Origin: a virus
Lineage: Duplodnaviria > Caudoviricetes
Virus record (IMG/VR): IMGVR_UViG_3300005077_000450
Span: 1 to 46,289 of that record
Length of the DNA stretch: 46,289 bases
Reading direction: 5' to 3' (one strand)
Below are positions 4,081-46,003 of this stretch, piece after piece; positions within the stretch are counted from its first letter, which is position 1; each line of letters starts with the position of its first letter. The notes beneath the pieces are model-generated. The model did not search any database and had not been told where the DNA came from. It worked only from the letters and a program-made list of their open reading frames with translations. The translations under genes were made by a program, and so were the position numbers.

Positions 4081-4168
4081 AAAATTGCAGCAATCCGCCG
4101 CGAGCGCGTTTTTCTTCTCCTTTCACGCGGATCGGCCATAGAACTGATCGGCGCTTGCTGCAAGTTTT
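4081..4168 (+). ncRNA. hairpin-closed candidate antisense RNA
   Basis: Stem AAAATTGCAGCAA..CGCCG / CGGCG..TTGCTGCAAGTTTT; loop 4116-4136 matches 35904-35932 in three blocks. Confidence 0.55.
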
Positions 4169-4170
4169 CC

Positions 4171-4198
4171 TTGACTCGCGCGAACTACCCTTTACCCT
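4171..4198 (+). promoter_or_regulatory. candidate promoter upstream of the packaging operon
   Basis: TTGACT, 16 nt, TACCCT; same -10 hexamer as at 34177; TTGACTCGC recurs at 11693. Confidence 0.4.
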
Positions 4199-4417
4199 AG
4201 GGGGCTGGCGGTGTAAGAAGGGCACAACGATTGAGTAACTATTTTACAGAACTGAGACTCATAGAATGGCGACAAGAAGCTATAGCCGCTTCACCATGGT
4301 GGGTACAAGCAATCATATTAATCGATAATATTAATTTTAAGCAAGAGTACCTTTATGCCGCGTCACTAGCACCAAGACACCATATCGTATGCATCAATTA
4401 AGAGCGCACAAAATACA

Positions 4418-5077
4418 ATGAACAGACTATTTCCAGAATTCATAAAACCGTTACTGCTTATAGCTAAACCTTCTATAGTAATTGAAGTCGGCGCGCACGC
4501 TGGCGACAATACAGAAAAACTAATGGCTTGGTGCTTCGAAAATAATAGCATCCTGCACATGATAGACCCATCACCAAAGTTTGACTTCGCGGCCATGGAA
4601 AGAAAATATTCAGCACAATTCCGCGCGCATATCGATACCAGTCTAAACGCTTTAAAAAATATAGTGTGCGCCGATATGGTACTAATCGACGGCGACCATA
4701 ATTGGTACACCGTCATCAACGAACTGCGAATCCTAACCGAAAAAGCACAAGCCGCCGCTATCGCGCTACCAATTATTCTTCTTCACGACGTCGCCGAACC
4801 GTGCGCCTATCGCGATCACTACTACGCACCAGCAAGAATACCAGAACAATATAGGCACAAACATCATCCTGGCGGAGAACCGATACCGGCCATCGACAAA
4901 GACACGCCAAGAAACGGCGTGCTTTGCGCAGTAAAAGACTTCATGGCGGAATACCCAACAACGTACCAATTTAAAATGACGCATAAAGAGAACGGCCTAG
5001 GCGCATTGATAAGCGATCATCGGCTACAATCAATCGACGGCCTCGCGGGCTGGTTCAATGGGTTCGGTAGGTGCTAA
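4418..5077 (+). CDS. class I SAM-dependent methyltransferase (Methyltransf_24-like)
   Basis: IEVGAHAG, LIDGDHNWY and LLHD motifs. Confidence 0.85.
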   Translation: MNRLFPEFIKPLLLIAKPSIVIEVGAHAGDNTEKLMAWCFENNSILHMIDPSPKFDFAAMERKYSAQFRAHIDTSLNALKNIVCADMVLIDGDHNWYTVINELRILTEKAQAAAIALPIILLHDVAEPCAYRDHYYAPARIPEQYRHKHHPGGEPIPAIDKDTPRNGVLCAVKDFMAEYPTTYQFKMTHKENGLGALISDHRLQSIDGLAGWFNGFGRC

Positions 5078-5452
5078 ATGGGAAGGCCTAAAAAAGTAAT
5101 TGATGAAGAATTAGTGCGCGACCTTGCCAGCATCGGGTGCACATGGAAAGAGATAGCTTCTGTAGTTGGATGCGCGGAAACGCTTTTAATGCGCCGTTTT
5201 GCAAGCATTATAAAAGATGGACACGAGCATTTTAAATCATCGCTGAGAAGGTTGCAGTATAAGGCCGCACAAAATGGAAATGTGGCCATGCTGATATGGC
5301 TTGGAAAGCAAGTATTAGGACAACGCGAACGCGTCGAACACTCGGCTGATGAAGACACAGCAGACAAGGTGATAAAAGCCTTAAAGGCTATGGATGCAAC
5401 AATCGGAACAGACAATGGATCATCTGACGATAATAACGGCGACAAGAAATAG
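5078..5452 (+). CDS. terminase small subunit
   Basis: MGRPKK start, HTH, SLRRLQYKAAQNGNVAMLIWLGKQVLGQ motif; upstream of the large subunit. Confidence 0.8.
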   Translation: MGRPKKVIDEELVRDLASIGCTWKEIASVVGCAETLLMRRFASIIKDGHEHFKSSLRRLQYKAAQNGNVAMLIWLGKQVLGQRERVEHSADEDTADKVIKALKAMDATIGTDNGSSDDNNGDKK

Positions 5453-6206
5453 GCCGCGCGGAATCGAACTCGCCGGGCGCTGGATGCGCAACCAAAGCTA
5501 TTCAGGGCCGGTACGGTGGATCATCGTAGACGATGGCGAAGATCGGTGCGAGGCACCAACTGTAAAAACAAATTGGATTGTTGAAGTTATCCGCAGAGAC
5601 GTCGAAACAAATGAAATAGCAAGTTTCACGGGAAACCTTGAGACCGGGATTTCAGCTGTCGATGCCGAATCAAATACGGTCGCCATAATTGAGGACGATG
5701 ATTATTATCGGCCTGAATATCTTGAATTTATGCTGAAGGAAATGCACGACAGCCAGGTTAGCCTCGTCGGCATAAAGGCGCTGCACTACTATAATCTTCG
5801 TGATAAGCTATACGTCCCAATCGTCCCGATGTGTGCGGCCATGTGTACGACGTGCTTCAAGCGCACGATGTTCTCGCCGTTCCGATGGTCGCTTCGTCAC
5901 GCAAAGCGTATGCAAACAATTGACGTTGATTTCATCCTATGGACCAGCGCGGCTATCCAGCTTCCGCATAAGTACGTCTTCCCTTCCAGGGCGATTAATA
6001 TCGGCATGAAATGCATTCCTGGGAGAAGAAGAATCGGCGCACTTGGCTGGAAGGTTGACGAATCGCAGAAAGATAAATATCATATCGATCGGGACGGTAC
6101 AATATTGCGGCGTCTTATCGGAATAGAAGAAGACGCGCAAATTTATCTCGACTTAATCAAGGAGATTGAGGCCGATGTCAAAGCCGCTGCTTCGCATGGC
6201 GCCTAA
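5415..6206 (+). CDS. glycosyltransferase family 2 (GT-A fold)
   Basis: TIITATRNR, WIIVDDG and IIEDDDYY (DxD) motifs. Confidence 0.85.
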   Translation: MDHLTIITATRNRPRGIELAGRWMRNQSYSGPVRWIIVDDGEDRCEAPTVKTNWIVEVIRRDVETNEIASFTGNLETGISAVDAESNTVAIIEDDDYYRPEYLEFMLKEMHDSQVSLVGIKALHYYNLRDKLYVPIVPMCAAMCTTCFKRTMFSPFRWSLRHAKRMQTIDVDFILWTSAAIQLPHKYVFPSRAINIGMKCIPGRRRIGALGWKVDESQKDKYHIDRDGTILRRLIGIEEDAQIYLDLIKEIEADVKAAASHGA

Positions 6207-6537
6207 CGGGCGAATATTAGACGAACACGGCGATCCGGCGCGATTGGATGATATCGAGTCTGGATATGCCAACGTGCTTATGGGGCACCAGTCGGCAACA
6301 AAATCCCCGATTAAGCATCTAAAGACGCTGGCCATGATTGTGGCGGATATCTACAAGAACGCCATAACCAACGCGTATATTGGAATGCACAATAAATACC
6401 TGTTTAAAATATGGGAGTTTGAGGGCACTATTCCAACCGAATATCTTGAAAAGATAGCTGATGCGCTTGAAGAAATAGGCCCGTTTTCTCAGTCAGATAA
6501 AAAGGCTGCACAAAAAGAACCGCCGCCCGGCGAATGA
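6175..6537 (+). CDS. hypothetical protein
   Basis: Fills the gap between the glycosyltransferase and terminase; RBS GAGG. Confidence 0.55.
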   Translation: MSKPLLRMAPNGRILDEHGDPARLDDIESGYANVLMGHQSATKSPIKHLKTLAMIVADIYKNAITNAYIGMHNKYLFKIWEFEGTIPTEYLEKIADALEEIGPFSQSDKKAAQKEPPPGE

Positions 6538-7872
6538 TTGTTGCTAACGCCTCGATGGACGCAGCTTAGATACCATCCGGAACAGCGCCGCTTATGGGAC
6601 AGCTTGACGCGTTTTTGCGTCATCCATGCGGGACGAAGATCCGGGAAAACCGAACTCGCCAAGCGCAAGCTTGTCATGCGGGCGCTTGCCTATCATCATA
6701 CCAAAGACGGACATTTCGGCGCGTGCGCCCCGACATACTCACAAGCCAAGGCACTTTACTGGAACGACTTAAAGGCGCTTGTTCCGAAGCAATTTATCGG
6801 TGACATTTCAGAAAGCGAACTAACGATAACACTAAAGCCGGTGGCAACGCGCATTTCCGTCATCGGCATGGATAAGCCGTACCGCATCGAGGGAACGCCA
6901 TGGGATGGGCTTCTGCTTGATGAGTACGGCAACATGAAGCCTGGCGCATGGGGCCAGAACGTGAGGCCTGCGCTTTCGACGCCAGGGCGGCCTCCTGGAT
7001 GGGCGTGGCTGTTCGGCGTTCCAGAGGGATGCAACCACTACCACGAGCTATATCAATTCGCGAAGGATCCCGAGAATAATGACTGGGATGTCTTCTGGTG
7101 GAATAGCGCGGACATCCTTACCAAAGAAGAAATCGCGGCAGCCAAGGCGGAACTTGACCCTGTCATATTTCAGCAAGAGTACGAGGGGGCCTTTGTTTCT
7201 TTCGAGGGCAGGGCATACCACGCCTTCGAGGCGAGCGTTCATGCGCGGGACAGGTTGGAATATGATCCGGCGCTTCCGCTTTGCTTTTGCTTCGACTTTA
7301 ACATCGAGCCTGGCGTTGCTGCTGTACTGCAAGACCAGCGATATCGTGGTGGGCGTGGCGATGTGGCCGATCAAATAACCGCCGTCTTGGGTGAGGTACA
7401 CATCCGAAGAAACAGCAGGACGGATATTGTCGTTCGGAAGCTTTGCGAGGATTGGAAGCATCATACCGGACAAATAAGGTGCTACGGTGACGCGACGGGC
7501 GGCGCGGGCGGTTCTGCTAAGGTGGCCGGTTCTGATTGGCAAATAATCCGCAATATGCTTTCGCAGGCATGGCCGGAGCGCGTCGATGTGCGCGTGCCGA
7601 GAGAGAACCCGCGCGAACGCGTGCGTATCAACGCGCTAAATGGGCGGCTTCGAACTGCTGACGGAAAGATTCATATGCTGATAGATCCACGATGCAAGCG
7701 CATCATCGAGGATCTTGACAACGTGAGCGTGATTCCTGGATCTGCTGGCGAGCTTGATAAGACATCAAATCTTTTATTGACTCATTTAACGGATGCCTTA
7801 GGTTATTTCGTTGTGTACGAGCATCCGCTTCATGCAGGGGCGGAAACTGTTGCTATATCGGGGATTTATTAA
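6538..7872 (+). CDS. terL: terminase large subunit
   Basis: Walker A AGRRSGKT, Walker B LLLDE, FQQEYEG, nuclease DFN and HLTDALGY. Confidence 0.95.
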   Translation: MLLTPRWTQLRYHPEQRRLWDSLTRFCVIHAGRRSGKTELAKRKLVMRALAYHHTKDGHFGACAPTYSQAKALYWNDLKALVPKQFIGDISESELTITLKPVATRISVIGMDKPYRIEGTPWDGLLLDEYGNMKPGAWGQNVRPALSTPGRPPGWAWLFGVPEGCNHYHELYQFAKDPENNDWDVFWWNSADILTKEEIAAAKAELDPVIFQQEYEGAFVSFEGRAYHAFEASVHARDRLEYDPALPLCFCFDFNIEPGVAAVLQDQRYRGGRGDVADQITAVLGEVHIRRNSRTDIVVRKLCEDWKHHTGQIRCYGDATGGAGGSAKVAGSDWQIIRNMLSQAWPERVDVRVPRENPRERVRINALNGRLRTADGKIHMLIDPRCKRIIEDLDNVSVIPGSAGELDKTSNLLLTHLTDALGYFVVYEHPLHAGAETVAISGIY

Positions 7873-7955
7873 ATGGAAGGGCGACGCTCAAACTGGAACT
7901 GCGGCAGCTTCGGGTTGCGGGTTAATTGCATCGCCTGGGCCAAGCCCTTCCGTTT
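7871..7955 (+). ncRNA. hairpin-closed structured element
   Basis: 12-bp stem AAATGGAAGGGC / GCCCTTCCGTTT enclosing a C(UUCG)G sub-hairpin; followed by a T-rich tract. Confidence 0.4.
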
Positions 7956-7963
7956 TATTTTAA

Positions 7964-7981
7964 ATGGCGTGATTTCTCCTT
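7964..7981 (+). ncRNA. single-stranded segment antisense to the RBS/start of the 35725-35895 gene
   Basis: ATGGCGTGA-TT-TCTCCTT versus ATGGCGTGA-C-TCTCCTT at 35894-35910. Confidence 0.55.
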
Positions 7982-7989
7982 CTCCTTGT

Positions 7990-8037
7990 GCGCGGGCCGG
8001 GCGTGCTTTGGGCGGCGGGCCTGGCCTGCGCTTTTTT
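7990..8037 (+). terminator. intrinsic terminator
   Basis: GCGCGGGCCGGGC / GCCTGGCCTGCGC stem followed by TTTTTT. Confidence 0.7.
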
Positions 8038-8052
8038 ATTGGGTGATTATTT

Positions 8053-8744: not shown

Positions 8745-8762
8745 AGAACAGGGGCTGTCATC

Positions 8763-9023: not shown

Positions 9024-9027
9024 ACAA

Positions 9028-11684: not shown

Positions 11685-11771
11685 CAAAAATATTGACTCG
11701 CTTCGCGTTTCTGTTATGCGTTGCGATTAATCGGCAGAGGGATTCTGCGATATTTTACGGAGTTATTATTC

Positions 11772-13941: not shown

Positions 13942-13977
13942 AGGCTCGGGTGCCGCAAGGCGCCCGGGCCTCCTTTC
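13942..13977 (+). terminator. GCAA-tetraloop hairpin after the capsid gene (weak terminator or stabiliser)
   Basis: AGGCTCGGGTGCC-GCAA-GGCGCCCGGGCCT; short U tract. Confidence 0.5.
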
Positions 13978-13988
13978 GAGGTGGACGC

Positions 13989-15259: not shown

Positions 15260-17911
15260 ATGGCTCAGGAGATCATCCGGCCTAACTCGGACATGAACAC
15301 AACATGGACTCCTAGCGGGGCTGCAACCCGTTATGAGTGCGTGGACGATGTTACGCCGGATGATGCTTCTACCTATATTCAGTCGCCAGCATCGACGCTT
15401 GTTCAGCAGCTTGGCCTTAACGCGCCAACAGGCATACCAGCCGGTTCGACAATCAACGGATGCTCGCTTTATGTAAGATATTTGGTCACCGGGACCAACA
15501 ACATCCGCGTCGGGTTGCGCATTGGCTCAACCAACTACACGGCGGATTATACGCCTGGCAGCACAGGCACGTGGCTTGAGATTTACCATACCTATTCGAC
15601 AAATCCAGCAACAAGCGACTATTGGGAACTATCGGACTTTGACAGCATAGGCGCTATCGTTCGCAATAATAATATCTCGCAGAATTATTATGTGACGATG
15701 GTTGCTCTTGTCATAAACTACACTGAACCGGGCGCGCATAATCTAACTGCCTTAGATATTACGGTGGGCGCACCGCTTGTCGATGCCCCTGCGATCGGGC
15801 AGAAGCACGCGCTAACTGCATCGGATGTTTTAGCGGGCGCCGCAGCGGTTGACGCCCCGGCGTTGGGACAGAAGCACGCCCTCTCGGCGTCTGACATTGC
15901 CATTGGCGTCGCGACAATCGACGCGCCTGCGCTCGGGCATATTTACGCGCTGACGGCCCCGGACATCTTGGCTGGCGCTGCATTGATTGACGCCCCAGCC
16001 ATCGGGCAGGTTCATTCTTTATCTGCCGCCGACGTTGCAGCCGGTGCCTTGTTGATTGAGGGGCCAGCGATAGGGCAAAAGCACGTCCTATCTGCGCCTG
16101 ACATTTTAATCGGCGCGGCATTAATTGACGCCCCTGCCGTAGGACAGTCCCACGCGTTATCCGCGCAAGATATTCTTATCGGGGCGCCTCTTGTAGACGC
16201 GCCCGCGCTATCCGAAGAATCCGGCCTTCTGCCCCTTGACATAACAATCGGCGCACCAGCTATTGATGCCCCGCCACTCGGGCAAAAACACGCCTTAACT
16301 GCACCGGATGTAGTTATTGGCGCAGCATTGATGGATGCCCCGTCGATTGGCCAAGTTCATTCGATAGCGGCGTCCGATATGGCTATCGGTGCGCCGCTAT
16401 TGGATTCCCCGCAAGTCGGGCAAAAGCACGCGCTCGTTGCATCCGACGTCGCTATCGGTTCTGCTGCTATCGATGCGCCCGTTATTGGACAAATCCACGC
16501 GCTTTCGGCAGCGGACTTGGCGGCGGGGGCTGCCGTGCTCGACGCGCCAGCGTTGGGCCAGGTGCATGGCCTTGAGGCCTCGGACATCTCGATTGGTGCG
16601 CCTTTAATCGATGCGCCGATCCTCGGTACGGACAACTCGCTAACCGCGCTTGACATCACGATGGGTGTGCCTGCGGTAGACGCGCCCGCGCTTGGCCAGG
16701 TTCACGGGCTATCCGTCCCGGACGTGCTGGCGGGTGCCACCGCCATCGACGCGCCCATGCTTGGACAGGCGCACAAGATTCGCGCTTCCGAGATCACCAT
16801 CGGCGCGCCGCTGATCGATGCGCCCGCGCTTACCTCGGATGATGTACTTGTCGCTCTGGACGTTCTAATTGGCGCACCAGCGATTGATTCGCCTGCGGTT
16901 GGACAGAACCACGCGCTAACCGCCGAAGACGTCGCCACGGGCGCTGTAGACGTCGAGGCGCCGTCTGTAGGGCAGGCCCACGGCCTATCCGCGTCCGATA
17001 TCGTATGCGGATCCCCTGCGATTGATTCTCCGGCCCTTGTTGCCTTTGCGTCTCTAACCGCACTTGATATTTCGCTTGGTGCTGCGGCAATCGATGCCCC
17101 GGCAATCGGCCAATATCACGTACTCGTCGCCGGGGAAATTGCTATCGGTTCTCCGAGAATCGATAGACCAGCAATCAACGCGGCGCAGGCCGTTGTCAAC
17201 GATGGATCGCTTGTTTACAAAATATATACGATCGTCCAGGCATACGGGAAAACGGCAACATACATCGGCACATTATCCCAAGACGTTAAAACAACGCCGC
17301 CGTATCCTGTTACCGATAAGATGCTTCGCGATGATATTCTTCGCGTGGGCGACGCGATGGCGTATTTACCGGCTGCCGGATTATCTGAAACGCCAGCCGC
17401 CGGGCACTATTTATTAATAGACGGCAGAAAATGGATTATAGTAAGGCTTGACAAGGTATTTACCGGAGACGGTTCGTCGGTAGGTGCCTATGGATTATAT
17501 CTAAGGCGATTTGGGAAAAGCCTTGCATCAGCGTCTACCAGTTCGACGAAGCTTGACGCGCGTCTTCGGTCACGCATTGCGTCACTGATATCGACTAAGG
17601 GGCAGGACGCGGTTTTTGCCGTGTGGGATCCTGGGACGTACGATCCTGCGACGCTTACCATATCAGGCGGAAGCACAAGCAACAGCACCGAGAAGGTTGT
17701 TCTTGTGTCCATGGGGGATGAGTTTTTACAGCCTGGCGATATTAAGACGGCTGGTCGTATAAAGGCGTTCCTTCCTGCCTATGGAATATCATTTACCCCT
17801 GCTGCTGGTATGACGGTAACGGCGGCAGGCGCGTCGTGGAAAATAGTGGATGATGGCCCTATTTATACCGGCGAGCAAGTCGGCCTCTATCAGCTTGTAT
17901 TGGAGCGTTAG
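15260..17911 (+). CDS. repeat-fibre protein fused to two head-closure-like domains
   Basis: ~159-aa N-domain, 21 x 23-aa repeats, then two domains ending WIIV..YGLYLRR and WKIV..YQLVLER; occupies the stopper gene position. Confidence 0.7.
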   Translation: MAQEIIRPNSDMNTTWTPSGAATRYECVDDVTPDDASTYIQSPASTLVQQLGLNAPTGIPAGSTINGCSLYVRYLVTGTNNIRVGLRIGSTNYTADYTPGSTGTWLEIYHTYSTNPATSDYWELSDFDSIGAIVRNNNISQNYYVTMVALVINYTEPGAHNLTALDITVGAPLVDAPAIGQKHALTASDVLAGAAAVDAPALGQKHALSASDIAIGVATIDAPALGHIYALTAPDILAGAALIDAPAIGQVHSLSAADVAAGALLIEGPAIGQKHVLSAPDILIGAALIDAPAVGQSHALSAQDILIGAPLVDAPALSEESGLLPLDITIGAPAIDAPPLGQKHALTAPDVVIGAALMDAPSIGQVHSIAASDMAIGAPLLDSPQVGQKHALVASDVAIGSAAIDAPVIGQIHALSAADLAAGAAVLDAPALGQVHGLEASDISIGAPLIDAPILGTDNSLTALDITMGVPAVDAPALGQVHGLSVPDVLAGATAIDAPMLGQAHKIRASEITIGAPLIDAPALTSDDVLVALDVLIGAPAIDSPAVGQNHALTAEDVATGAVDVEAPSVGQAHGLSASDIVCGSPAIDSPALVAFASLTALDISLGAAAIDAPAIGQYHVLVAGEIAIGSPRIDRPAINAAQAVVNDGSLVYKIYTIVQAYGKTATYIGTLSQDVKTTPPYPVTDKMLRDDILRVGDAMAYLPAAGLSETPAAGHYLLIDGRKWIIVRLDKVFTGDGSSVGAYGLYLRRFGKSLASASTSSTKLDARLRSRIASLISTKGQDAVFAVWDPGTYDPATLTISGGSTSNSTEKVVLVSMGDEFLQPGDIKTAGRIKAFLPAYGISFTPAAGMTVTAAGASWKIVDDGPIYTGEQVGLYQLVLER
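15737..17185 (+). repeat. 21 tandem 69-bp (23-aa) coding repeats
   Basis: Consensus HALxAxDIxIGAPxIDAPAIGQx, counted by eye. Confidence 0.9.
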
Positions 17912-31123: not shown

Positions 31124-31163
31124 GCCGGGATCCATAGGATAGCTATGGGTTCCGGCTGTTTTT
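31124..31163 (+). terminator. intrinsic terminator ending the late operon
   Basis: GCCGGGATCCATAG / CTATGGGTTCCGGC stem followed by TGTTTTT. Confidence 0.75.
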
Positions 31164-31243
31164 GTTAGCAAGCCGCCGTAAACCCGCAATATATACCAGT
31201 TTATAACGCCTAAAAAAAATCTGCTAAAATCTCAAGAATACTG

Positions 31244-31303: not shown

Positions 31304-31659
31304 CGAAAGGAGCGAGCGATGAATCAAGAAATAAAGAGAGCGATGGAAGAGGCCAAGATGTCGCCGGTTATGGTGATGGAACAAGCAGAGGACTTTGAGA
31401 GCGAGGCAGCCATAGAGGCGCTTACGGCGATGAACAAGGCCGAAAACACTGGCAATGCTATCGACGCGGCAAACGCGATGACCGCCTGCGCGAAGTGGAT
31501 TGAGAAAAACGAGGATGCGGCATTACAGATCATCCGCAAGCGCATCCTTGCCCGCGCTGCATTAGCGGAGCGCGATGCGCGACCGATGACACCCGGTGAG
31601 GTTGATAAGCTGCTTGGGATGTAATATGAGGCAACCAGAGCGAAAGGAGCGAGCGATGA
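31304..31659 (+). repeat. 19-bp direct repeat spanning RBS and ATG of two adjacent genes
   Basis: CGAAAGGAGCGAGCGATGA at 31304-31322 and 31641-31659. Confidence 0.9.
31319..31624 (+). CDS. hypothetical protein
   Basis: ATG inside the RBS repeat. Confidence 0.7.
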   Translation: MNQEIKRAMEEAKMSPVMVMEQAEDFESEAAIEALTAMNKAENTGNAIDAANAMTACAKWIEKNEDAALQIIRKRILARAALAERDARPMTPGEVDKLLGM

Positions 31660-31934: not shown

Positions 31935-32283
31935 AGCAATCGGAGATAACTCTTACAGCCTATTTGAACAGCTCGGTAAAATATCTCCGCTTTTTGGTGG
32001 CACTACAAGGCCATATGGTGTTAGCGAGGTGTTTTGCGACCGCATAACTGGCGAGATACACCTAATGGCTATACGTGGTCGCAAGGACTACTCCAAAGCG
32101 AACAGCAAAGGTTCGCGCGGCGTATATCTCAATTATGTCATTGAGAGCGGGCATCTATATTTTGTCCGCGAGGCCGTATCGTGGAAGCGCATACGCGAAT
32201 ATTTTTGCCTAGCATCGGAAGACGGTGAAGTTGTCGAATTAAATGATACGGAGGCTATGTCGTGGCTGGCAAAAAATTCTTAG
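31912..32283 (+). CDS. hypothetical protein directly upstream of ibrA
   Basis: KDYSKANSKGSRGVY motif; overlaps the ibrA start. Confidence 0.7.
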   Translation: MKAAIKIEAIGDNSYSLFEQLGKISPLFGGTTRPYGVSEVFCDRITGEIHLMAIRGRKDYSKANSKGSRGVYLNYVIESGHLYFVREAVSWKRIREYFCLASEDGEVVELNDTEAMSWLAKNS

Positions 32284-33464
32284 GCATCAATGTATTGGAC
32301 GCTGCCAGAGCGAGGATTGCATGGGTATTCGATAACATCCCGCGCGTCTATGTATCTTTTAGCGGCGGGAAAGACTCTACAGTTATGCTGCATCTTGTGG
32401 CCGAGGAGGCCAGAAAGCGCAACAAAAGATTCGGACTGCTATTTGTAGACCTTGAAGGGCAATACAGGCTAACTATTGAACACGTGGCCGCGTGCTATGA
32501 TATGTACTCCGACATCGTGGAGCCTTACTGGGTGGCGCTTCCTATTCACCTCCGCAATGCCGTATCTCAATTCGAGACACATTGGCTCTGCTGGGACAAG
32601 GCGCGCGAAGCTGATTGGGTTAGGTCTCGGCATATAACATCCATAGGCAACGAATCGTTCTTTCCGTTTTTCCGAAGCGGAATGGAGTTCGAAGAGTTCA
32701 CGCCAGCATTCGGCCATTGGTTCGGCGACGGCAAGCTGACTGCGTGCTTTGTTGGGATTAGAACGGCCGAATCCTTAAACCGGTGGCGTACGATTGCCGC
32801 TGGGAGAAAGCAGGCCATGGACGGGAAGTGTTGGACTACGTGGTGCGGCGAGTCGTTGTGGAATATCTATCCAATCTACGACTGGAAAACCGAAGACATA
32901 TGGACCTATCATGGAAAGTATCCAGATAGGCCATATAACAAGCTATATGACAGAATGTATCAGGCTGGTCTTACCATTCATCAAGCGCGAATCTGCCAGC
33001 CTTATGGTGACGACCAACGCAAAGGATTATGACTTTTTCACGTTATAGAGCCGGAGACGTGGGCCCGCGTTGTGGCTCGCGTCAACGGAGCCAACCAGGG
33101 CGCTATCTATGCGCAGGAGAGCGGGAACGTATTGGGGAGGATAACCATATCCAAACCAGAGAATCATTCGTGGCAATCGTTCGCGATGCTGCTGCTTGAA
33201 AGCCAGCCACCAAAAACGCAGGAACATTTTCGAAATAAAATTGCAGTTTTTTTAAAATGGTATGCTGACAGAGGTTTCTCGAATGGCATTCCTGATGATG
33301 GACCTCTAGACAAAAGCGCGCCATCATGGAAGCGAATATGCAAAGCTCTGCTGCGGAATGACTATTGGTGCAAAGGGCTTTCTTTTACTCAGCACAAGTC
33401 CGCCGCTTATCAAAAATACTTGAAGCTCATGGAGAGGAGGCGCAGAGAATGGAAGTTGATTTAA
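32262..33464 (+). pseudogene. ibrA: IbrA/YbdN-like PAPS-reductase-family protein (DUF3440) with an in-frame TGA
   Basis: SFSGGKDS, GIRTAES and YPIYDW motifs; the frame continues QRKGL*LFHVIEPETWARVVARVNG with TGA at 33030-33032; NDYWCKGL. Confidence 0.8.
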
Positions 33465-33976
33465 CATGGACCACTAATCATCCGGTGTCCCGCGTGCAAT
33501 GGCTACCCGTTGAGCAACTGCACGCTAATGACTATAATCCGAATGCCGTGGCGCCGCCGGAGATGAAGTTGCTCAGGATCTCTATTGAAAGTGACGGGTA
33601 TACTCAGCCGATTGTTGCATGGATTGTAGACGAAAACGAGTACGAGGTCGTGGATGGCTTTCACCGTTACAAGGTAGGTGTCGAGCTTGGGCTGAGTCAC
33701 CTTCCTGTTGTTGTTATAAACGCCGCCAGAGCTGACCGGAGCGACCGCATTGCCGCGACGATTCGGCATAATAGGGCTCGCGGCAAACATCAGGTCGGAG
33801 CCATGAGCGATATCGTGCAAGAACTTGCGCGGCGCAATTGGAGTGACCAGAAGATTGCGCGCGAGCTTGGCATGGAACCAGACGAAGTTTTGAGGCTCAA
33901 ACAGATTACCGGACTTGCCGAGTTATTTGCTGACCGTGAATTTTCCGAGGCCTGGGAGGGCGATCCAGATGCATGA
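33449..33976 (+). CDS. ibrB: IbrB/YbdM-like ParB-family protein
   Basis: ANDYNPNAVAPPE, DGYTQPIV, VVDGFHR and TIRHNRARGKH motifs. Confidence 0.9.
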   Translation: MEVDLTWTTNHPVSRVQWLPVEQLHANDYNPNAVAPPEMKLLRISIESDGYTQPIVAWIVDENEYEVVDGFHRYKVGVELGLSHLPVVVINAARADRSDRIAATIRHNRARGKHQVGAMSDIVQELARRNWSDQKIARELGMEPDEVLRLKQITGLAELFADREFSEAWEGDPDA

Positions 33977-34157
33977 TACCTTCACCGTCTCTGAGGCCGC
34001 CCGCATTCTCGGCGTCCACCGATCCCGCGTCTGGGTGCTGGTGCGGGACGGCCGCATCAAGGCGACCAGGGCCGGGCCGATCTGGCTCATCGAGCGCGCC
34101 GACCTGGACCGATACAGGGCGCTTCCGCCGGCGCCTCCGGGGCGGAAACGCGGTTGA
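33969..34157 (+). CDS. excisionase-like HTH_17 DNA-binding protein
   Basis: TVSEAARILGVHRSRV..GRIKA..WLI. Confidence 0.85.
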   Translation: MHDTFTVSEAARILGVHRSRVWVLVRDGRIKATRAGPIWLIERADLDRYRALPPAPPGRKRG

Positions 34158-34182
34158 CCTTCCAGCCGCCCTTGGTTACCCT
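34154..34182 (+). promoter_or_regulatory. integrase promoter (probably leaderless mRNA)
   Basis: TTGACC, 17 nt, TACCCT; ATG 34190 follows after 7 nt with no SD. Confidence 0.55.
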
Positions 34183-34189
34183 TCTCGCC

Positions 34190-35728
34190 ATGGGCCGCGC
34201 CATCCTATATATCAGAGTCTCCACCGAGGACCAGGTCGCCGGGACCAGCCTCGCCACCCAAGAGGAGGCGTGCCGCGCTGCCGCCGCCCGGGGCGGGTTC
34301 GAGGTTGCGTCGGTGTTCCGGGACGAGGGCGAGTCGGCCAGGACAACGGACCGGCCCGGCCTCATGGCCGCCCTGGCCGCCGCCCGGAAGAAGGACGCGA
34401 ACGCCCTCATCGTCTATAAAATCGACCGCCTAAGCCGGAACCAACTTGACTTCCTCACCATCAAAACGGCGCTCCTGTCTTGGCAGGTGCAGCTTATATC
34501 GGCCACGGAGCCTATGACCGAAGACCCGGCGGGACGGCTCACGGCCTCCCTCCTGGCGGCCATAGCGCAGTTCGACAACGAGGTTCGCGGCGCCCGGGCG
34601 AGAAGCGGCATGGAAGCCCGGGCTAAAGCGGGCGGCTGGGTATGGGTTGCGCCCCTGGGGTTCGAGAATGCCCGTAGTCAAGCGGGAGGCCCTACGTTGA
34701 CCCTGGACACCATCCGGGCCGAGAAATTGCGTCCTGCGTGGTCCTGGGCGCTTGCTGGCGTGCCTTTGGCCGAAATTGCGGCGCGGCTTGAGGCGGCTGG
34801 ATTAAAACCGGCCCGAAATGGACAGCTCACCGGGCGCACCGTCTGGCGGATGCTCCGCTCCCCGGTCTACGCCGGGATGATGAAGACCCGGCTTGCAGAC
34901 GGGCGGATGATGCGCGGGGACTGGCCGGCGATCGTGGACGCCGAGACGTGGTGGGCCGTGCAGGAGAAGCTCGAGGGCAAGGCGCAGGCCAGGCCAAGGG
35001 TGACGGACCGGGACGACTTGCCGCTTCGGGGGTGGGTGCGGTGCGGATCCTGCGGGCGTCCGCTTACCGGATCGTGGAGCCGGGGACGCCGTGGCGGGCG
35101 CTACGCCTACTACCATTGCCACGAACGGTGCCGTGGCGTCAACGTGCGGGCGGATCGGCTTGAGGCCATGCTGCTGGAGGCCTTGGACGGCCTGGCGCTC
35201 CGACCGGAAGCGGCGAAGATTATCCGGGAAGAGGGAATCCGGGTTGCCCGGGAGCGTGAACTTATCAGCCGGACAGCGAAGAACGCCTCCGCGCAGGAAG
35301 CGGCACACCTGACACGCCAGCAAGACCGGCTCCTTGACCTCTACTTGGCTGGGCATCTGGACGCCGACGCCTACCACAACCGGGCTGGCAAAATCGCCGT
35401 GGAGCTGCTGAAGGCACGGGACCGGGCCGAAGCTGCGGCGGTGGAACACGCCGACTACCGGGCCATGATAGACGAGGCGCTGGCTCTTGTCGAACACCCG
35501 CGCCGATGGTGGCAAGCCTCGACCCTCAAAGAACGTAGGGCAATCGGTGCGCTGTTCTTTCCGTCGCCGCCGATTTTCGATGGAGAGGCTTGTCGAACCC
35601 CCGTAATTAACGAAGCCGTGCTACTTTATACGCAGCACGGCCTCGATGGTTCACGGTGGCACGCCACTTTGAACGAACTTGGAACCCTTATGCACTTTTT
35701 TTCGAAGGCTATAAGTATCGCGTCTTAA
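34190..35728 (+). CDS. int: large serine integrase
   Basis: YIRVST, DEGESA..RPGL, DRLSR, recombinase domain, Zn ribbon CGSCG..YYHC..C, coiled coil. Confidence 0.95.
   Translation: MGRAILYIRVSTEDQVAGTSLATQEEACRAAAARGGFEVASVFRDEGESARTTDRPGLMAALAAARKKDANALIVYKIDRLSRNQLDFLTIKTALLSWQVQLISATEPMTEDPAGRLTASLLAAIAQFDNEVRGARARSGMEARAKAGGWVWVAPLGFENARSQAGGPTLTLDTIRAEKLRPAWSWALAGVPLAEIAARLEAAGLKPARNGQLTGRTVWRMLRSPVYAGMMKTRLADGRMMRGDWPAIVDAETWWAVQEKLEGKAQARPRVTDRDDLPLRGWVRCGSCGRPLTGSWSRGRRGGRYAYYHCHERCRGVNVRADRLEAMLLEALDGLALRPEAAKIIREEGIRVARERELISRTAKNASAQEAAHLTRQQDRLLDLYLAGHLDADAYHNRAGKIAVELLKARDRAEAAAVEHADYRAMIDEALALVEHPRRWWQASTLKERRAIGALFFPSPPIFDGEACRTPVINEAVLLYTQHGLDGSRWHATLNELGTLMHFFSKAISIAS
35649..35674. 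other. candidate attP within the integrase 3' end
   Basis: GTTCA-cg-GTGGC-[AC]-GCCAC-tt-TGAAC inverted repeat around a central dinucleotide. Confidence 0.5.
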
Positions 35729-35895
35729 TCCATTTCCGCAAGGCGACGTTCCTGTGCGGCGAGTTCGGCCTTCTCGGTCTTCGCGTTGTTTTCGGCAGCC
35801 TCTTTTTCAAGCGCCTCTTTGGCCGTTACGCCGATAATCGTCAAAACAAAAACAGCCGCAGAGATTAAAATAACAATCATTGGAAAATCTGACAT
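35725..35895 (-). CDS. 56-aa single-pass membrane protein in the repressor operon (not in the ORF track)
   Basis: MSDFPMIVILISAAVFVLTIIGVTAKEALEKEAAENNAKTEKAELAAQERRLAEMD*; RBS AAGGAGAG directly after the repressor stop. Confidence 0.75.
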   Translation of the reverse strand: MSDFPMIVILISAAVFVLTIIGVTAKEALEKEAAENNAKTEKAELAAQERRLAEMD

Positions 35896-35910
35896 GGCGT
35901 GACTCTCCTT

Positions 35911-36576
35911 TCACTTACGCGGAACGATCGGCACCTCCCCACCGCGCTTCGAATCTACCGGATACATTCTTATTATCTCTGACTTTTTCATCGTGCGGGA
36001 CTGCCCGCGACTTGTGCTGAGTACCACCGTCTCCCCGTTTAATTCAACAAACCGAAGCAGGGCTTGCCCATCCCCAAGGCGCACCACCACCATATCACCC
36101 GTCTTTGCCGTCCTTGTCATATGGAACTTAACCTGATCCCCTCCTTCGACATAAGGTGCCATGTCATCGCCCTCCACGACCGCATACCCATACTCCTCCA
36201 CTATTCCCTCCCAGTTGACAAACCCTCCTCCTTCTGCCGTTGCCGATACTGTTCCCGAAATTTTTAGGCTTAGCATGAACGTGGCTCCCGAACGGCCCGA
36301 AGATACCCCGGATAAAGAAACTTGTCCAATAAAATCCGGAATATCCTGAATGGTTTCCTCGCCCAGCCACCAGCCTACGGATAGGCCGGTAGCGGCGGCT
36401 AACGCCTCGACGGCTTTTAGGCCTGGGGACCGATCGCCCGTCAAATATCGGGATATAAAACCGCGCTGGAAGCCGTGTTCTACCTCAAAATCCTGCTGCT
36501 TTTTTCCCTTAAAGTACTGCCCTAACCTTTGTCTAAATGCGGCCTTCTGTTTGCTTGAAAGATTTTTTCCTACCAT
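35911..36576 (-). CDS. CI-like repressor (XRE HTH plus degenerate S24 domain)
   Basis: ISRYLTGDRSPG..LAAATGLSVGWWLG HTH; VEGDDMAP and GDMVVV S24-like fold; divergent from the early genes. Confidence 0.85.
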   Translation of the reverse strand: MVGKNLSSKQKAAFRQRLGQYFKGKKQQDFEVEHGFQRGFISRYLTGDRSPGLKAVEALAAATGLSVGWWLGEETIQDIPDFIGQVSLSGVSSGRSGATFMLSLKISGTVSATAEGGGFVNWEGIVEEYGYAVVEGDDMAPYVEGGDQVKFHMTRTAKTGDMVVVRLGDGQALLRFVELNGETVVLSTSRGQSRTMKKSEIIRMYPVDSKRGGEVPIVPRK

Positions 36577-36617
36577 GGCGGATTTTTGGTTGAATCCTTT
36601 CCACCAAAAGCCGATAT

Positions 36618-36648
36618 ATTGGTAGAACGCTCATGGAAATCTACCAAT
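36618..36648. promoter_or_regulatory. operator-like inverted repeat in the immunity region
   Basis: ATTGGTAGA..13 nt..TCTACCAAT; AAATCTACCAAT recurs near 36803. Confidence 0.45.
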
Positions 36649-36910
36649 GCAGAATCAACAAAAAATACAGATAGCCGACCCGGGGGTGGGAGAGACACGC
36701 CAGCAACAGCGTAGTTTCCATGAGCAACCCACTCTCGGGCTCGGCTTTTATTCCATTAGGCCGGAAGCGGGCTGCGAACGCCCCTCCCACCGCGCAGAGG
36801 CAAAATCTACCAATCCAATCGACAAATCGCAACAGGAAAATCTGCGCGCGTGGGCGCGGGCGTATTGGACGGCCGTCTTCGACCGGATGGAAAGGGGAGT
36901 CAAGTCATGA
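36647..36910 (+). CDS. first early gene, hypothetical
   Basis: ORF with ATGA overlap to the next gene; start uncertain. Confidence 0.45.
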   Translation: MQNQQKIQIADPGVGETRQQQRSFHEQPTLGLGFYSIRPEAGCERPSHRAEAKSTNPIDKSQQENLRAWARAYWTAVFDRMERGVKS

Positions 36911-37155: not shown

Positions 37156-37385
37156 CTGACGCCATGAATCGCCTCGTCGATGAACTTCATCGCCTCGGAG
37201 AAGTCGATGCGCCAATCCATATCAACCGAATCGAAACCGGCGACGGTCCGCATTGGGCCATGACGGTGCATTTACACAATGGCAAGGCTTACCGCAGAAC
37301 GGCGGCATCAATCACCGAATCCGCCGAATCCATCATCGCGCAGCTTGAAACGCTGCCAAGCTTCGAAAGGAGTATCCAATGTTAA
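37149..37385 (+). CDS. hypothetical protein
   Basis: RBS GGAGGT. Confidence 0.65.
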   Translation: MVTDAMNRLVDELHRLGEVDAPIHINRIETGDGPHWAMTVHLHNGKAYRRTAASITESAESIIAQLETLPSFERSIQC

Positions 37386-38808: not shown

Positions 38809-38816
38809 GGTGCATC

Positions 38817-39743: not shown

Positions 39744-40566
39744 CTGGCGCCCGCGCGAATACCAAAACAGTTACCGCTAGCCGGGTACTGAAGGATCGGT
39801 ACGCGCGCGGGGCCAGCCTTGCAAATATGCCCGTCGCTCTTATTGCCGCACGACCGGCGGTGGAGACAACCGGAACATCGCCGGGGCATGGGGCGACGGG
39901 CTTTGACACAAGAAGGGCAAGCGTCGTCGCCCGGCGAAGTGGCGGTAGGGTGGGCGGCGACAGCAAGCCTTATACGACTTCAATCGTCGGATAAATGCCC
40001 CGACGGTTTGTTCTTTGAAAAAGGCGGGCTGGGAGGAAACAGTGTTATTTAACAATAATCTGTTGGCGAGGCTTACGGCGCTTTGCAAGAGTGATGCCGT
40101 AAAATAACGACTAATGTGCGTTCGCTCTGATTTGTTGTTTAAGGCTTTTAACGCTGTATTTCCCCGGAAGCTTTTGTGTGTGTATTTCATCTAGTATCCC
40201 TTCCAGCCCGCCGTTTTTAATCAGCAAAAATAATCGTTCTTTGACATGGCGGCTCGGCAAGATCTAAGGGCCTGATGGATGGCAACAATTTATTCCTATG
40301 TTGGAATAAGCCATGTATTTTTAGATGTCTGCATACACGACATCGCCAAACAAAAGGCCGCAGCGGAAGTCCTAAACGAGTGCCGAGCCGCCACCTTTAA
40401 CACACAACGGCCGCCGCGCCTCACGCACCTGAGGTAGCGGTAACCGCCTCAGAGGCAAGGCGGCCTACTTTTACACCATGACGCGCACCAGGGAAAAATT
40501 GGCGGTACTTTACCATCTTGATATGTAGACGCACGATCAGCAACGCGCAATGCGCCGATTGCTGAT
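39744..40566 (+). ncRNA. array of about eight stem-closed structured RNA elements with boxA-like linkers
   Basis: Stems at 39744-39816, 39829-39901, 39923-39961, 39983-40007, 40023-40212, 40247-40393, 40409-40465 and 40536-40566. Confidence 0.65.
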
Positions 40567-42695: not shown

Positions 42696-43102
42696 CGGGC
42701 GGTATGAGAGAAACAACCATCACCGGCCGCGTGCTGGTTCTTCGCGGCCTACCGTGGCCGCCGAGCGTGAATCGCTATTATCGGCACGTCAGCCTCAAAG
42801 GCCGGCACGCAACCCTCATCAGCCGGGAAGGCCGGTTGTTCCGAAACAAGGTAGCCGAGTATTGCTTAATTAACCAGACGCCGACGATGACCGGACAACT
42901 CGACTTGTCCGTTTACTTGGAACCACCGGACAAGAGAATCCGCGACGTGGACAACTCGCTGAAGTCGCTGCTGGATGCGTTGCAGCACGCCAAGGTGATC
43001 GAGAACGATTCGCAGATTTACCGGCTTGAAGCAATCAAGGCCGCGCCGCATAAGGGCGGGCGCGTGACCGTGACCATTATTCCGTATGTGGCGGATCTTT
43101 AA
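42692..43102 (+). CDS. rusA: RusA-like Holliday junction resolvase
   Basis: LPWPPSVN, PPDKRIRDVDN..KSLLDAL and NDSQI motifs. Confidence 0.9.
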   Translation: MTGGMRETTITGRVLVLRGLPWPPSVNRYYRHVSLKGRHATLISREGRLFRNKVAEYCLINQTPTMTGQLDLSVYLEPPDKRIRDVDNSLKSLLDALQHAKVIENDSQIYRLEAIKAAPHKGGRVTVTIIPYVADL

Positions 43103-43123
43103 CGTTTTTACAAGGAGCATATC

Positions 43124-43927
43124 ATGGAGCAGGATATTATAAAACAGGAAGCATTTTATCTCGCCACCATTACACCAGAGATTGCCGAACGGTGGCTGGA
43201 ATATAACAATATTCATAACAGGCCACTTCAAAACAAATGCGTCTATAATTTAGCGAAGGAAATGAAAGAAGGTAGGTGGGTTGTTAATGGCGACACTATT
43301 AGATTTTCAAAAAATAGAACGCTATTGGACGGGCAACATCGGCTATGGGCCTGCATAGAAGCGAATGTCCCTTTTCAGTCGTATGTTATTTGTGGATTGG
43401 ATATGGATGTTTTTGACACTTTAGACAGTGGAAAGCGCCGCACTGGGGCGGATGTATTATCAATTTATGGAGAACAAAACACGGCTTGCCTTGCCGCAGC
43501 TCTTGCTCTTGTAGATCGGTATATGACAAGCAGAATGTACCCAGGCGTCAGATACGCGAACTCTGAGTTATTAGACTTGGCTAAAAAATATCCAAAAGTA
43601 CGCGATAGCACATCTAAGGCCTGCGGCAACCTAAAAGGGCTGCTCCCTAATTCCATTATGGCTGCGTGTCATTATTTATTTTCATTGAAAGATCCAAAAC
43701 TTGCCGACGAGGTAATGGAAAAAGTGAGAAAAGGAACATACCTCGCAGACGATGATCCCATTCGAGTATTCCGAGAGCGGCTATTGAATAATTCCATATC
43801 TAAAGCAAAGCTCAGCCGGGAATATATCATGGCGCTTTTTATTAAAGCATGGAATGCCGCGAGGGCTGGTCGGCCGGTTCGCGCATTGCGGTATCAAAAG
43901 GACGAGGCATTCCCGGTTGTACAGTAA
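43124..43927 (+). CDS. ParB-like / DGQHR-motif protein
   Basis: ITPEIAERWL..NRP, LLDGQHRL and DSGKRRT motifs. Confidence 0.75.
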   Translation: MEQDIIKQEAFYLATITPEIAERWLEYNNIHNRPLQNKCVYNLAKEMKEGRWVVNGDTIRFSKNRTLLDGQHRLWACIEANVPFQSYVICGLDMDVFDTLDSGKRRTGADVLSIYGEQNTACLAAALALVDRYMTSRMYPGVRYANSELLDLAKKYPKVRDSTSKACGNLKGLLPNSIMAACHYLFSLKDPKLADEVMEKVRKGTYLADDDPIRVFRERLLNNSISKAKLSREYIMALFIKAWNAARAGRPVRALRYQKDEAFPVVQ

Positions 43928-43954
43928 ATTGAGCATAATAATGGAGTCTGTTTT

Positions 43955-45004
43955 ATGAACGATGCCGTACTCGCAAGGCTGGATATAGCACGCGCCGCGC
44001 TTGAGAAGGCGGACACTGTAGATGAGATAAAACAGATTGCGGACATTGCGGCGGCCGCGATTGTTTTCGCGCGGCGCGTGAACCGCAGCGTCGAGGTCAT
44101 CAACAAGGGTCTCTCAATCAAGACCCGCGCGGAGCGGAAGCTGGGCCAGGCGATTAAGGACGGCCAGGAGCGTGGGGAGCTTCGCAAAGCTGGCGGCTCC
44201 GGTGATTCTGTAAAAAGTACAAAATCATTCGAAGACCTCGGCATAGATTCCAACCAGTCGCGGAAGTCGCGCACCCTGGCAGCGATTCCCGACGATGTCT
44301 TCGAAGAGACATTGGCGCAGGTGGAGGAAGCGCCGGTACGGCTCAATGAATCCGAGATTTTGCGAATCGCGAGCGCGTTAAAGGCCAAGAAGGTCAAGCG
44401 CAAGAAGCCAGGGCTGGTTTACGACGTTAACAAAAACGAGTCGGCCATATGCAGTCTTGAATCTTTGATCGCCGATGGTTCAAAATTCGGAACTATCTAT
44501 GCGGATCCTCCGTGGCGCTACGGAAACCAGGGCACGCGCGCAGCAACTGATAATCACTACGTCACCATGACGCCCGCTGAGATTGCCGCGTTGCCAATCG
44601 CCTCGCTTGCCGCAGAGCAAGCCCACCTGCACCTGTGGACAACCAACGCTTTTCTGTTCGATTCCAAGGCAATTATCGAGGCTTGGGGGTTCGAATACAA
44701 AAGCGTATTTGTTTGGGTAAAGCCACAAATGGGCATTGGAAATTACTGGCGCGTATCCCATGAGCTAATGTTGCTTGGAGTTCGTGGAGGTCTTACGTTT
44801 CCAGACAAAAATATGAAAAGCTGGATTGAGGCGAGCAGAACTAAACACAGTTCAAAGCCTGCAGAGATTAGAAAGCTGATCGAGCGGGCGAGTCCGGGGC
44901 CGCGCCTTGAATTATTTGGTCGGCAAACGTCGCCAGGCTGGACGGTCTGGGGAAATGAAATAGAAAAAACGCTCTTTAATGGGGAGGCATTCGCCAATGG
45001 GTAA
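43955..45004 (+). CDS. MT-A70 family adenine methyltransferase with N-terminal helical domain
   Basis: IYADPPW, LHLWTT, WGFEYK, HSSKP and LELFGR motifs. Confidence 0.9.
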   Translation: MNDAVLARLDIARAALEKADTVDEIKQIADIAAAAIVFARRVNRSVEVINKGLSIKTRAERKLGQAIKDGQERGELRKAGGSGDSVKSTKSFEDLGIDSNQSRKSRTLAAIPDDVFEETLAQVEEAPVRLNESEILRIASALKAKKVKRKKPGLVYDVNKNESAICSLESLIADGSKFGTIYADPPWRYGNQGTRAATDNHYVTMTPAEIAALPIASLAAEQAHLHLWTTNAFLFDSKAIIEAWGFEYKSVFVWVKPQMGIGNYWRVSHELMLLGVRGGLTFPDKNMKSWIEASRTKHSSKPAEIRKLIERASPGPRLELFGRQTSPGWTVWGNEIEKTLFNGEAFANG

Positions 45005-45590
45005 CGGATACGAAGAGGCATGCGCCGTAGAAAAAAAGGCCATGCTGGATCTTGTTCCCTTTTTACGAGACAACATTGCGTTCGAAGGACGTTTTGTTGT
45101 TACCAGCAAGGGCAGGCTTGCACCAATGCTGCAAAAGTCAGTAGGTGATGTCCTTGTCAATACTGACGCTGAAACGCTGTGGTCTGTTGAAATAAAATCA
45201 GAAGCCAGAACAACCGGAAATCTGTTTCTTGAGACGTGGTCTAATTCACCGCGCTTTACGCTTGGATGGATGTATACGCTCAACGCGGATATTCTATGGT
45301 ATTATTTTATGGATACCGGCAAGTTGTATTCCATGTCCTTTCCGTCTCTAAAGAGATGGGCTTTTTACGATAGAAATAAGCATGGCGTTGCTGGAAAGCT
45401 GTACGAATACCGAGAAGTAGAACAGAAGAAGCACGCGCAATTAAATATAACCTGCGGAAGAATTGTCCCTATTGTTGACATTGAATGTGCAATAGGAATG
45501 AAAACGTGGCACGTCGCGAGCAATGAACTTGTAAAAGATGCAAAGCCACCTAAACAGCAGTCACTATTTGGAGGCGATAAAGCGGCATGA
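44997..45590 (+). CDS. putative PD-(D/E)XK-fold nuclease
   Basis: VGD..VEIKSE..GNLFLETWSN..GW pattern. Confidence 0.5.
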   Translation: MGNGYEEACAVEKKAMLDLVPFLRDNIAFEGRFVVTSKGRLAPMLQKSVGDVLVNTDAETLWSVEIKSEARTTGNLFLETWSNSPRFTLGWMYTLNADILWYYFMDTGKLYSMSFPSLKRWAFYDRNKHGVAGKLYEYREVEQKKHAQLNITCGRIVPIVDIECAIGMKTWHVASNELVKDAKPPKQQSLFGGDKAA

Positions 45591-46003
45591 TTTATTTAGC
45601 ATCCCCACTAACCCACGAAAGCCTCGGCGTCATGGAGCGCCGCATCGACGCGACGGCGAAGGTGTACGCCAGGCTTCATCGGCAGGGCATCTACACCATC
45701 GCGCCGACGGTTGCCTCATGGGAGCTTGCGCGGCGCAGCGGCCTTCCTACCGACTGGAATTTCTGGCGGCCGTGGTGCCTCGCGCTGCTTCGGCGGTGTT
45801 CTGGAATGTATATCCTGCGTTTGCCGGGCTGGGAGCGAAGCGTTGGGAACGCGAAGGAGTACGTAGAATTGACACATGACACCCACGCCGTTCGGATCAA
45901 CCGGCGAATAATCCTACTTAGGCTTTTTCCCATGGCGCATCTTTTCATCAACTACCTCACATCAAGCCGCCCCGGGCGGCGTGGGTTCTTTTTTGTTTCT
46001 TAA
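45587..46003 (+). CDS. DUF1937-like protein with aberrant C-terminus
   Basis: MIYLASP, LPTDWNFW and LPGWERSVG motifs; family resemblance is lost after ~45850, where the ORF reads through a hairpin element. Confidence 0.7.
   Translation: MIYLASPLTHESLGVMERRIDATAKVYARLHRQGIYTIAPTVASWELARRSGLPTDWNFWRPWCLALLRRCSGMYILRLPGWERSVGNAKEYVELTHDTHAVRINRRIILLRLFPMAHLFINYLTSSRPGRRGFFFVS
45881..45994 (+). ncRNA. hairpin-closed candidate antisense RNA / large-loop terminator
   Basis: 15-bp stem ACCCACGCCGTTCGG / CCGGGCGGCGTGGGT plus TCTTTTTT; loop resembles 36480-36508 and 36564-36580. Confidence 0.55.

Follow-up and report, generated by a model that had tools for sequence, protein, structure and literature searches.

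Suggestive complementarity of lytic-strand non-coding segments to the translation start of a putative accessory gene in a phage repressor operon

We analyzed the IMG/VR virus record IMGVR_UViG_3300005077_000450, taken as an entire contig of 46,289 bases (hereafter, the window), which belongs to a temperate siphophage with nearly every gene on the plus strand. Its minus-strand immunity operon encodes a cI-like repressor (cI, 35911-36576) and a 56-amino-acid protein (orf56, 35725-35895). Two plus-strand elements, E1 (taken as 4081-4170) and E2 (7873-8037, directly after terL), are complementary to the translation start of orf56, and this complementarity is in excess of several null expectations. 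We tentatively favor the explanation that E1 and E2, possibly together with a 10-mer at 40242, act as trans antisense RNAs that would silence orf56 while sparing cI. Depending on the statistic, p for this set is approximately 0.002-0.02, and overall 0.005-0.02 when the existence of two minus-strand starts is allowed for; these values are no more than suggestive. A single genome provides the evidence, which does not support the further-reaching idea that RNA silences the repressor.

All seven gapped copies of operon sequence listed in the original prediction could be aligned where it had placed them. The reported length of 16-21 nt does not apply to the match at 40242, which is a 10-mer, and the described clustering on ribosome-binding sites (RBS) and start codons is seen for four of the seven matches, the other three being inside coding regions. 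The target zone in the cI-orf56 mRNA (35890-35932, minus strand) comprises the last codons and the stop of cI, the Shine-Dalgarno (SD) sequence AAAGGAG, the spacer and the orf56 AUG. E1 copies 35904-35932 at 4116-4136 in blocks of 9, 5 and 7 nt, with a longest exact run of 11. It is predicted to fold as a three-way-junction RNA (4085-4163, plus strand; fold z -2.28), in which a 15-nt loop (4110-4124) is unpaired and carries the anti-SD complementary to the orf56 SD, and the remaining match blocks (4125-4136) are in stems and not in a second loop. E2 copies 35894-35910 at 7964-7981 with 16 identities, one wobble and one bulge; its predicted architecture (z -2.21 and -3.78) includes a hairpin (7873-7953), a largely unpaired linker with two anti-SD boxes (7954-7989) and a GC-rich terminator-like stem (7990-8031), followed by a U tract. 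The third match, the 10-mer of element E3b (40242-40251, plus strand), is exactly complementary to the orf56 start from -4 to +6. The location of the elements in or beside stems is borne out by the predicted folds. Their description as non-coding is plausible and not clean: 7964-7981 is in a called 57-amino-acid open reading frame (ORF; 7873-8046) and 45910-45937 is in a called 138-amino-acid ORF (45587-46003), although both stretches have negative codon scores; 40342-40363 is inside an uncalled 52-amino-acid ORF. We also considered E2 as a protein gene, which is unlikely given that its 57-amino-acid ORF scores negatively for codon usage, belongs to no family and begins with an AUG that is within a 10-bp stem.

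Targets were ranked with our own seed-and-accessibility model (7-bp seed, loops of at most 8, ViennaRNA loop energies, no dangles), which gave -31.6 for one test duplex, compared to -33.3 for RNAduplex. The genome-wide ranking took in six named elements (E1, E2, E3a, E3b, E3c and E4) and six of seven controls, whereas the pair matrix covered 13 elements by 61 starts (784 pairs). Start codons were picked automatically, and some are probably wrong. Decoys were 563 automatically called starts from 63 fetched loci, including 52 AAGGAG decoys. The exact-helix test was energy-free and covered all non-coding pieces.

The predicted trans silencing of the immunity operon is not supported for cI and is partly supported for the orf56 translation start, with two or three elements; only the three matches in this region (4116, 7964 and 40242) jointly exceed the nulls. 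With both accessibilities, the orf56 start ranks second of 61 for E1 and second of 60 for E2; with query accessibility only, the ranks are first of 61 and second of 60. Null sequences with the SD and ATG fixed reached the E1 value in 43 of 3000 cases, the E2 value in 5 of 3000 and the sum of E1 and E2 in 3 of 3000. Among the 784 pairs, E2-orf56 is first and E1-orf56 is 12th, and orf56 is first of the 61 starts by the best-two sum. The combined E1 and E2 value was reached by none of the 563 decoy starts. The best genome-wide partner of the E2 reverse complement is 35894-35916. In the exact-helix test, orf56 has helices of 11, 10 and 9 from three separate non-coding pieces, and their sum is the first in the window (the next are 29 and 28). 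This sum was matched by 1 of 563 decoys, 1 of 52 AAGGAG decoys, 17 of 3000 SD-fixed nulls, none of 400 element shuffles and 0.33% of 15,416 windows; the minus strands of the same non-coding pieces score 23, equal to the null mean. Across models, the rank of the orf56 start spans 1-2 of 60 for E2 when accessibility is considered and 1-15 of 61 for E1, whereas E3 and E4 fail.

A number of results weigh against the antisense explanation. The statistics were picked once the matches were already known, and the window itself was drawn from a very large scan. In whole-molecule cofolding, E1-orf56 is ninth of 61 with 69 of 556 decoys as good, and 15th of 61 if E1 is started at 4092, a start at which the fold of E1 also loses significance (z -0.30). 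E2-orf56 is first of 60 by cofolding, but three other starts of the AAGGAG type (31319, 38323 and 30617) are within 1 kcal/mol of it and 22 of 556 decoys are as good; the pair E2-30617 is second of the 784, the longest exact helix of E2 (10 bp) is with the ssb RBS, and E2-orf56 falls to 16th of 61 on raw duplex energy. Without accessibility E1-orf56 is fourth of 61, and 58 of 563 decoys do equally well. The 40242 match passes none of the energy tests (the null is as good in 1872 of 3000 cases), and half of this 10-mer is locked in a 13-bp stem that starts at 40247. The orf56 SD is itself predicted to be paired already, and a called 57-amino-acid ORF spans E2. When more of the start context is fixed, the null rises to 60-118 of 3000 (2-4%); leaving out E1 or E3b brings p to approximately 0.05 (82 of 1500 and 76 of 1500, respectively); and sixteen loci, two strands together, reach the same helix score as orf56.

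Chance and generic anti-SD small RNAs (sRNAs) are close rivals of the antisense explanation. If chance is responsible, which is possible though not our choice, the elements would be terminators, leaders and processing stems of an ordinary kind whose spacers are rich in pyrimidines, the matches having been picked from a large search space. The loss of significance on leaving out one element fits such an origin, as do the null results for the whole operon (below), the failure of four of the seven matches, with a fifth passing on exact length only, and the good scores of unnamed control segments (c12618-orf56 has z -2.5, and c4171 puts the cI start second of 60). With the best-two-of-13 score, in which the choice of elements is taken into account, 5 of 563 unrelated starts reach the orf56 value, so that the expectation for 61 starts is approximately 0.5. 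Less easily attributed to chance is that the outlier is one of the two minus-strand starts, the sole starts within the direct-copy search behind the original prediction, and that the orf56 signal stands under three different nulls. In addition, anti-SD words of the plus strand are almost confined to non-coding places that are predicted to be unpaired: TCTCCTT is found on this strand only in E1, in E2 (twice) and in the target, and CTCCTT has four copies in 2.5 kb of non-coding sequence versus one in 42.9 kb of coding sequence.

The other close rival is that E1 and E2 are generic anti-SD sRNAs that would damp many RBSs of the AAGGAG type, with orf56 as one target beside the early genes at 31319, 31656 and 37379, ssb (38323), the tail fibre gene (30617) and host genes. 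This is rather unlikely in our estimate. The sequence GAAAGGAG has 6 copies compared to 1.2 expected (reached in 0 of 100 shuffles); four of them serve as SDs (31319, 31656, 37379 and orf56), and the E1 loop carries another in antisense. The pairing of the second E2 box with the ssb RBS over 10 bp, the near-ties in cofolding, and the position of E1 at the early/late boundary behind a candidate promoter are also consistent with generic action. Conversely, the E1 helix is longest at orf56 (11 versus 8-9) and is joined there by two further blocks, the 9-mer of E2 lies over the spacer and AUG and does not match an SD, and none of the 52 AAGGAG decoys reaches the combined E1 and E2 value. As a separate observation, the neighboring genes 31319 and 31656 have an identical 19-nt RBS and start (31304-31322 and 31641-31659), and their SD octamer is used also at 37379 and orf56.

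The original prediction was that at least five dispersed sRNAs silence cI and orf56 together and thereby commit the phage to lysis. At the level of the whole operon, there is no signal for such a system. The alignment of four named intergenic regions under three scorings was compared to 282-290 other 876-nt windows, and all 12 tests had p of at least 0.05 (0.052-0.98); we point out that, of the three scorings, the loosest is in the linear regime and is uninformative. Compared to shuffles, p was 0.085-0.98, and the sum of the top five exact helices of the operon was reached by 132 of 400 element shuffles. The operon had been expected to rank first, with hybridization beyond that of shuffled controls; as a whole it is at chance level.

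The repressor gene performs no better as a target. When both accessibilities are used, the rank of the cI start is 23 of 61 for E1, 40 of 60 for E2, 61 of 61 for E3a, 53 of 61 for E3b, 61 of 61 for E3c and 31 of 60 for E4, and its exact-helix score equals the null mean (reached by 236 of 400 shuffles and 70 of 563 decoys). E4 has an 8-nt match to the cI start that is not robust: it is favorable only against Markov nulls (18 of 800) and in the pair matrix (fifth of 784), and unfavorable by rank (6 of 60), among decoys (56 of 563 as good) and in cofolding (30 of 60). The best E4 duplex at cI uses bases approximately 20-33 nt upstream of the AUG, and in a leaderless cI mRNA this part of the predicted duplex would be lost. 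The silencing of both genes together still has some points in its favor, namely, that CGCCATG precedes only the two minus-strand starts while E2, E3b and E4 all contain ATGGCG, that the best genome-wide site of E4 is in the cI coding region (36071-36100), and that a two-start pair statistic gives p of 0.004-0.01. However, this pair statistic is carried by orf56, with cI alone at the null; the same coding-region site (36067-36100) is also the top match of a control strand; and ATGGCG is common on the strand of the elements (46 copies). The joint silencing of both genes is largely refuted by the rank tests, and we consider it hardly credible, the least probable of the explanations discussed here. 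The coding-region matches were rejected individually: those at 40342-40363 and 40433-40456 are at chance level (genome ranks 15 of 1247 and 118 of 678), as is the match of 45910 to 36489. If the matches are read as operator copies, their location is at the cI 3' end and not in the cI-cro gap; the palindrome TTGCNGCAA might bear on such a reading, as it flanks E1 twice, but it is found also in two coding regions (four copies, a total reached by 5 of 100 shuffles).

Under the antisense explanation, E1 and E2 would be sRNAs, or exposed leader or 3'-untranslated segments, transcribed from the lytic strand, and would pair in trans at the RBS and start codon of orf56, so that translation is blocked while the cI start is untouched. 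E1 may nucleate through its anti-SD loop and zip upstream across the cI stop and last codons, whereas the unpaired E2 linker would lie over the SD, the spacer and the AUG. Immediately after the cI stop comes the orf56 SD, for which base-pairing to the early orf56 coding region is predicted, and this fits translational coupling of orf56 to cI. In lysogeny modules, this kind of position and a hydrophobic helix suggest exclusion or abortive proteins, and the location of orf56 between cI and the integrase, together with its single hydrophobic helix, points to a lysogeny accessory membrane protein acting as a superinfection exclusion or abortive effector. The RNAs might then uncouple orf56 from cI, such that a phage in lytic growth is not blocked by its own protein; alternatively, if the E1 promoter is constitutive, orf56 could be held down in the lysogen. 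An extended version, in which early (40242), early/late boundary (E1) and late (E2) RNAs take turns masking one RBS, would amount to a relayed, RNA-only self-escape with dispersed antitoxins, and appears improbable. How induced prophages escape their own exclusion or abortive proteins is stated as an open question in a study of the BTP1 immunity RNA (PMC7067206). If the antisense explanation is true, the repressor operon would have its accessory gene silenced by remote sRNAs cut from lytic transcripts, a simple solution that sequence searches can screen for.

The original prediction that cI and orf56 are the only convincing minus-strand genes is confirmed: they have the top two codon scores among the 210 minus-strand ORFs of at least 40 amino acids and are the only positive-scoring ones free of cover by a plus-strand gene. 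The cI product (221 amino acids) has domain matches to a helix-turn-helix and an S24 peptidase. No SD precedes its ATG (SD duplex energy +2.0), and the mRNA is possibly leaderless; the cI mRNA of lambda is leaderless. In contrast to cI, orf56 has a strong SD. By hydropathy and structure prediction, its product has one N-terminal hydrophobic segment (peak 2.76) and a charged helical tail, with a single helix predicted at 4-55 (predicted local distance difference test score 85.8, single-sequence input). A homolog search with orf56 returned only orf56 itself, and the Atlas leads for it were all below 0.9. Both minus-strand genes have in common the start context CGCC-ATG (35893-35899 and 36574-36580), which is found at none of the plus-strand starts of the window and at 1 of 563 decoys. 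Around the cI start there are four CTACCA half-sites (36570-36646 and 36807-36812), two of which form an inverted pair at 36620-36646; these are candidate repressor operators.

The orf56 gene is converged upon by a plus-strand serine integrase gene (34154-35728), which is preceded by an excisionase gene (33969-34157, plus strand); this xis-int pair has the orientation opposite to cI, and the stops of the integrase (35728) and orf56 (35725) genes overlap. A cis mechanism is conceivable here, in which transcription of xis-int runs on across orf56 and cI, leaving the dispersed matches as incidental. The overlapping stops are in line with read-through, as is the lack of any terminator-like site found on either strand at the integrase/orf56 junction, where folding is not significant; Rho-dependent termination, however, is invisible to these scans, and the excess complementarity of E1 and E2 would be left unexplained. 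We regard control by read-through as very unlikely to account for the matches.

In the literature searched, mostly listings and abstract openings with few subscription papers, we found no account in which several remote RNAs of the lytic strand converge on an accessory gene of a repressor operon. The candidate set belongs to none of the C4, OOP/sas and RalA types, as it is without an Rfam match, is not cis-encoded and is not adjacent to its target. C4 of P1/P7 is described as a phage-encoded structured RNA of approximately 77 nt, the loop of which occludes an RBS by short complementarity; it maintains lysogeny and uses two loops, a' and b' (PMC5320573). Typical of C4 are also a second loop that confers specificity at an upstream site and RNase P processing out of a longer transcript. 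Compared to this description, E1 is similar in size and has a predicted unpaired loop complementary to an SD, whereas its further match blocks are in stems rather than in a second loop and its target is a lysogeny-side gene approximately 30 kb away. C4-type Rfam models had no match in the window at E of at most 1, and local scans at E of at most 5 gave three sub-threshold unrelated matches.

The RNAs sar and sas are cis-encoded. Both are called antisense RNAs in a review (PMC12197685), where OOP is described as overlapping the cII 3' end and can suppress Rex exclusion, and sas regulates the SieB exclusion protein (PMC12197685, PMC7067206). With these systems the candidates share RNA control in a lysis-lysogeny module, and E1 covers a gene 3' end and the next intercistronic region; they differ in that E1 and E2 are 28-32 kb from orf56, have short imperfect matches and do not overlap the target. 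Among the candidates, only integrase read-through would qualify as cis-antisense. RalA, an sRNA of the rac cryptic prophage, is described as blocking the translation of a toxic gene by 16 nt of complementarity, with ralA adjoining ralR, which encodes a DNase (PMC4041452). The 16 identities and one wobble of E2 resemble this system, and orf56 is a small hydrophobic protein of 56 amino acids with one hydrophobic segment, as is expected of type I toxin-antitoxin systems. In contrast to RalA, there are two or three candidate RNAs, remote and within lytic operons, and orf56 is only a putative toxin; the sole local source of antisense RNA would be integrase read-through, so that the adjacency typical of type I systems is lacking.

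A further comparison is the 6S late leader of lambda (pR'-tR'). E1 is similar in that a candidate promoter precedes it where early and late regions meet, and E2 has a terminator inside the late region, which would imply read-through control. The difference is that no strong terminator was found in a search for one closing E1. Among the gene annotations of the window, no Q-like antiterminator was identified. The 6S RNA is listed as Hfq-dependent (PMC12197685).

Searches for relatives of cI found no match in annotated phages or viral contigs and only cI itself among 777 candidates; in a 1.84-billion library, 1 of 73 matches was below 1e-10. A search with gene 8053 found nothing. Relatives were obtained through terL (42 loci, best identity 57%), the exonuclease (best 57%), the major capsid protein (4 loci, best 51%) and the integrase (1 locus, 25%). 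In 67 loci with 25-57% identity, there was no cI or orf56 homolog and no credible copy of an element. A 20-nt match to the E2 linker in one of the loci (L064) was rejected, as it is located within a terminase gene in antisense orientation. When viral contigs were scanned for exact copies of the E1 and E2 seed patterns, there were 0 hits; with blastn, no match of E1, E2 or E3 to annotated phages was below E 0.05; and Rfam and tRNA scans were negative. One exonuclease homolog with 47% identity has a cluster member named from a Lentisphaeria metagenome-assembled genome, which may be a weak hint at the host.

The window carries terminase, portal, capsid and tail genes, a block with PAPS reductase and ParB, and the excisionase and serine integrase genes; then come cI, Sak4, ssb, exonuclease, replication initiator and RusA. 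The candidate extended -10 promoter just before E1 (4077-4085, plus strand) is suggested by the motif TGnTAWAAT, which has three sites in the window (376-384, 4077-4085 and 31222-31230), all intergenic and on the plus strand; this count equals chance (2.98 expected). In this order, the sites may be promoters of the phosphoesterase gene at 421, of E1 or the late region, and of the operon that runs to xis-int. The 9-mer TTGACTCGC is identical at the starts of two intergenic stretches (4171-4179 and 11693-11701), and its copies are possible shared -35 elements.

The intergenic region at 39995-40480 (plus strand) is strongly structured according to folding (z -5.01, 0 of 100 shuffles), with three domains of a GC stem and a U tract: a 30-bp inverted repeat around 162 nt and then two more. 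It has no Rfam family and no homolog, and is possibly a processing or attenuation element. E4 (45881-45995, plus strand; z -3.44) is a terminator-like long stem with a pyrimidine-rich loop, located in the 3' tail of the ORF 45587-46003. At 31153-31166, the U-tract side of a hairpin after the tail fibre gene is a 14-nt exact inverted copy of orf56 sense sequence (35845-35858), which is probably of low complexity. A hairpin after the major capsid gene (13943-13985, plus strand; z -3.3) ends in an anti-SD octamer before the SD of gene 13989, and its predicted fold suggests possible cis control of this gene. The PAPS-reductase-like gene is spread over two ORFs (32262-33032 and 33072-33464), whose matches are to consecutive parts of a single PHROG family, and it appears to be split or frameshifted. 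Lastly, the 883-amino-acid protein encoded at 15260-17911 contains an array of 69-nt (23-codon) repeats at approximately 15742-17164 and a fused C-terminal head-closure domain.

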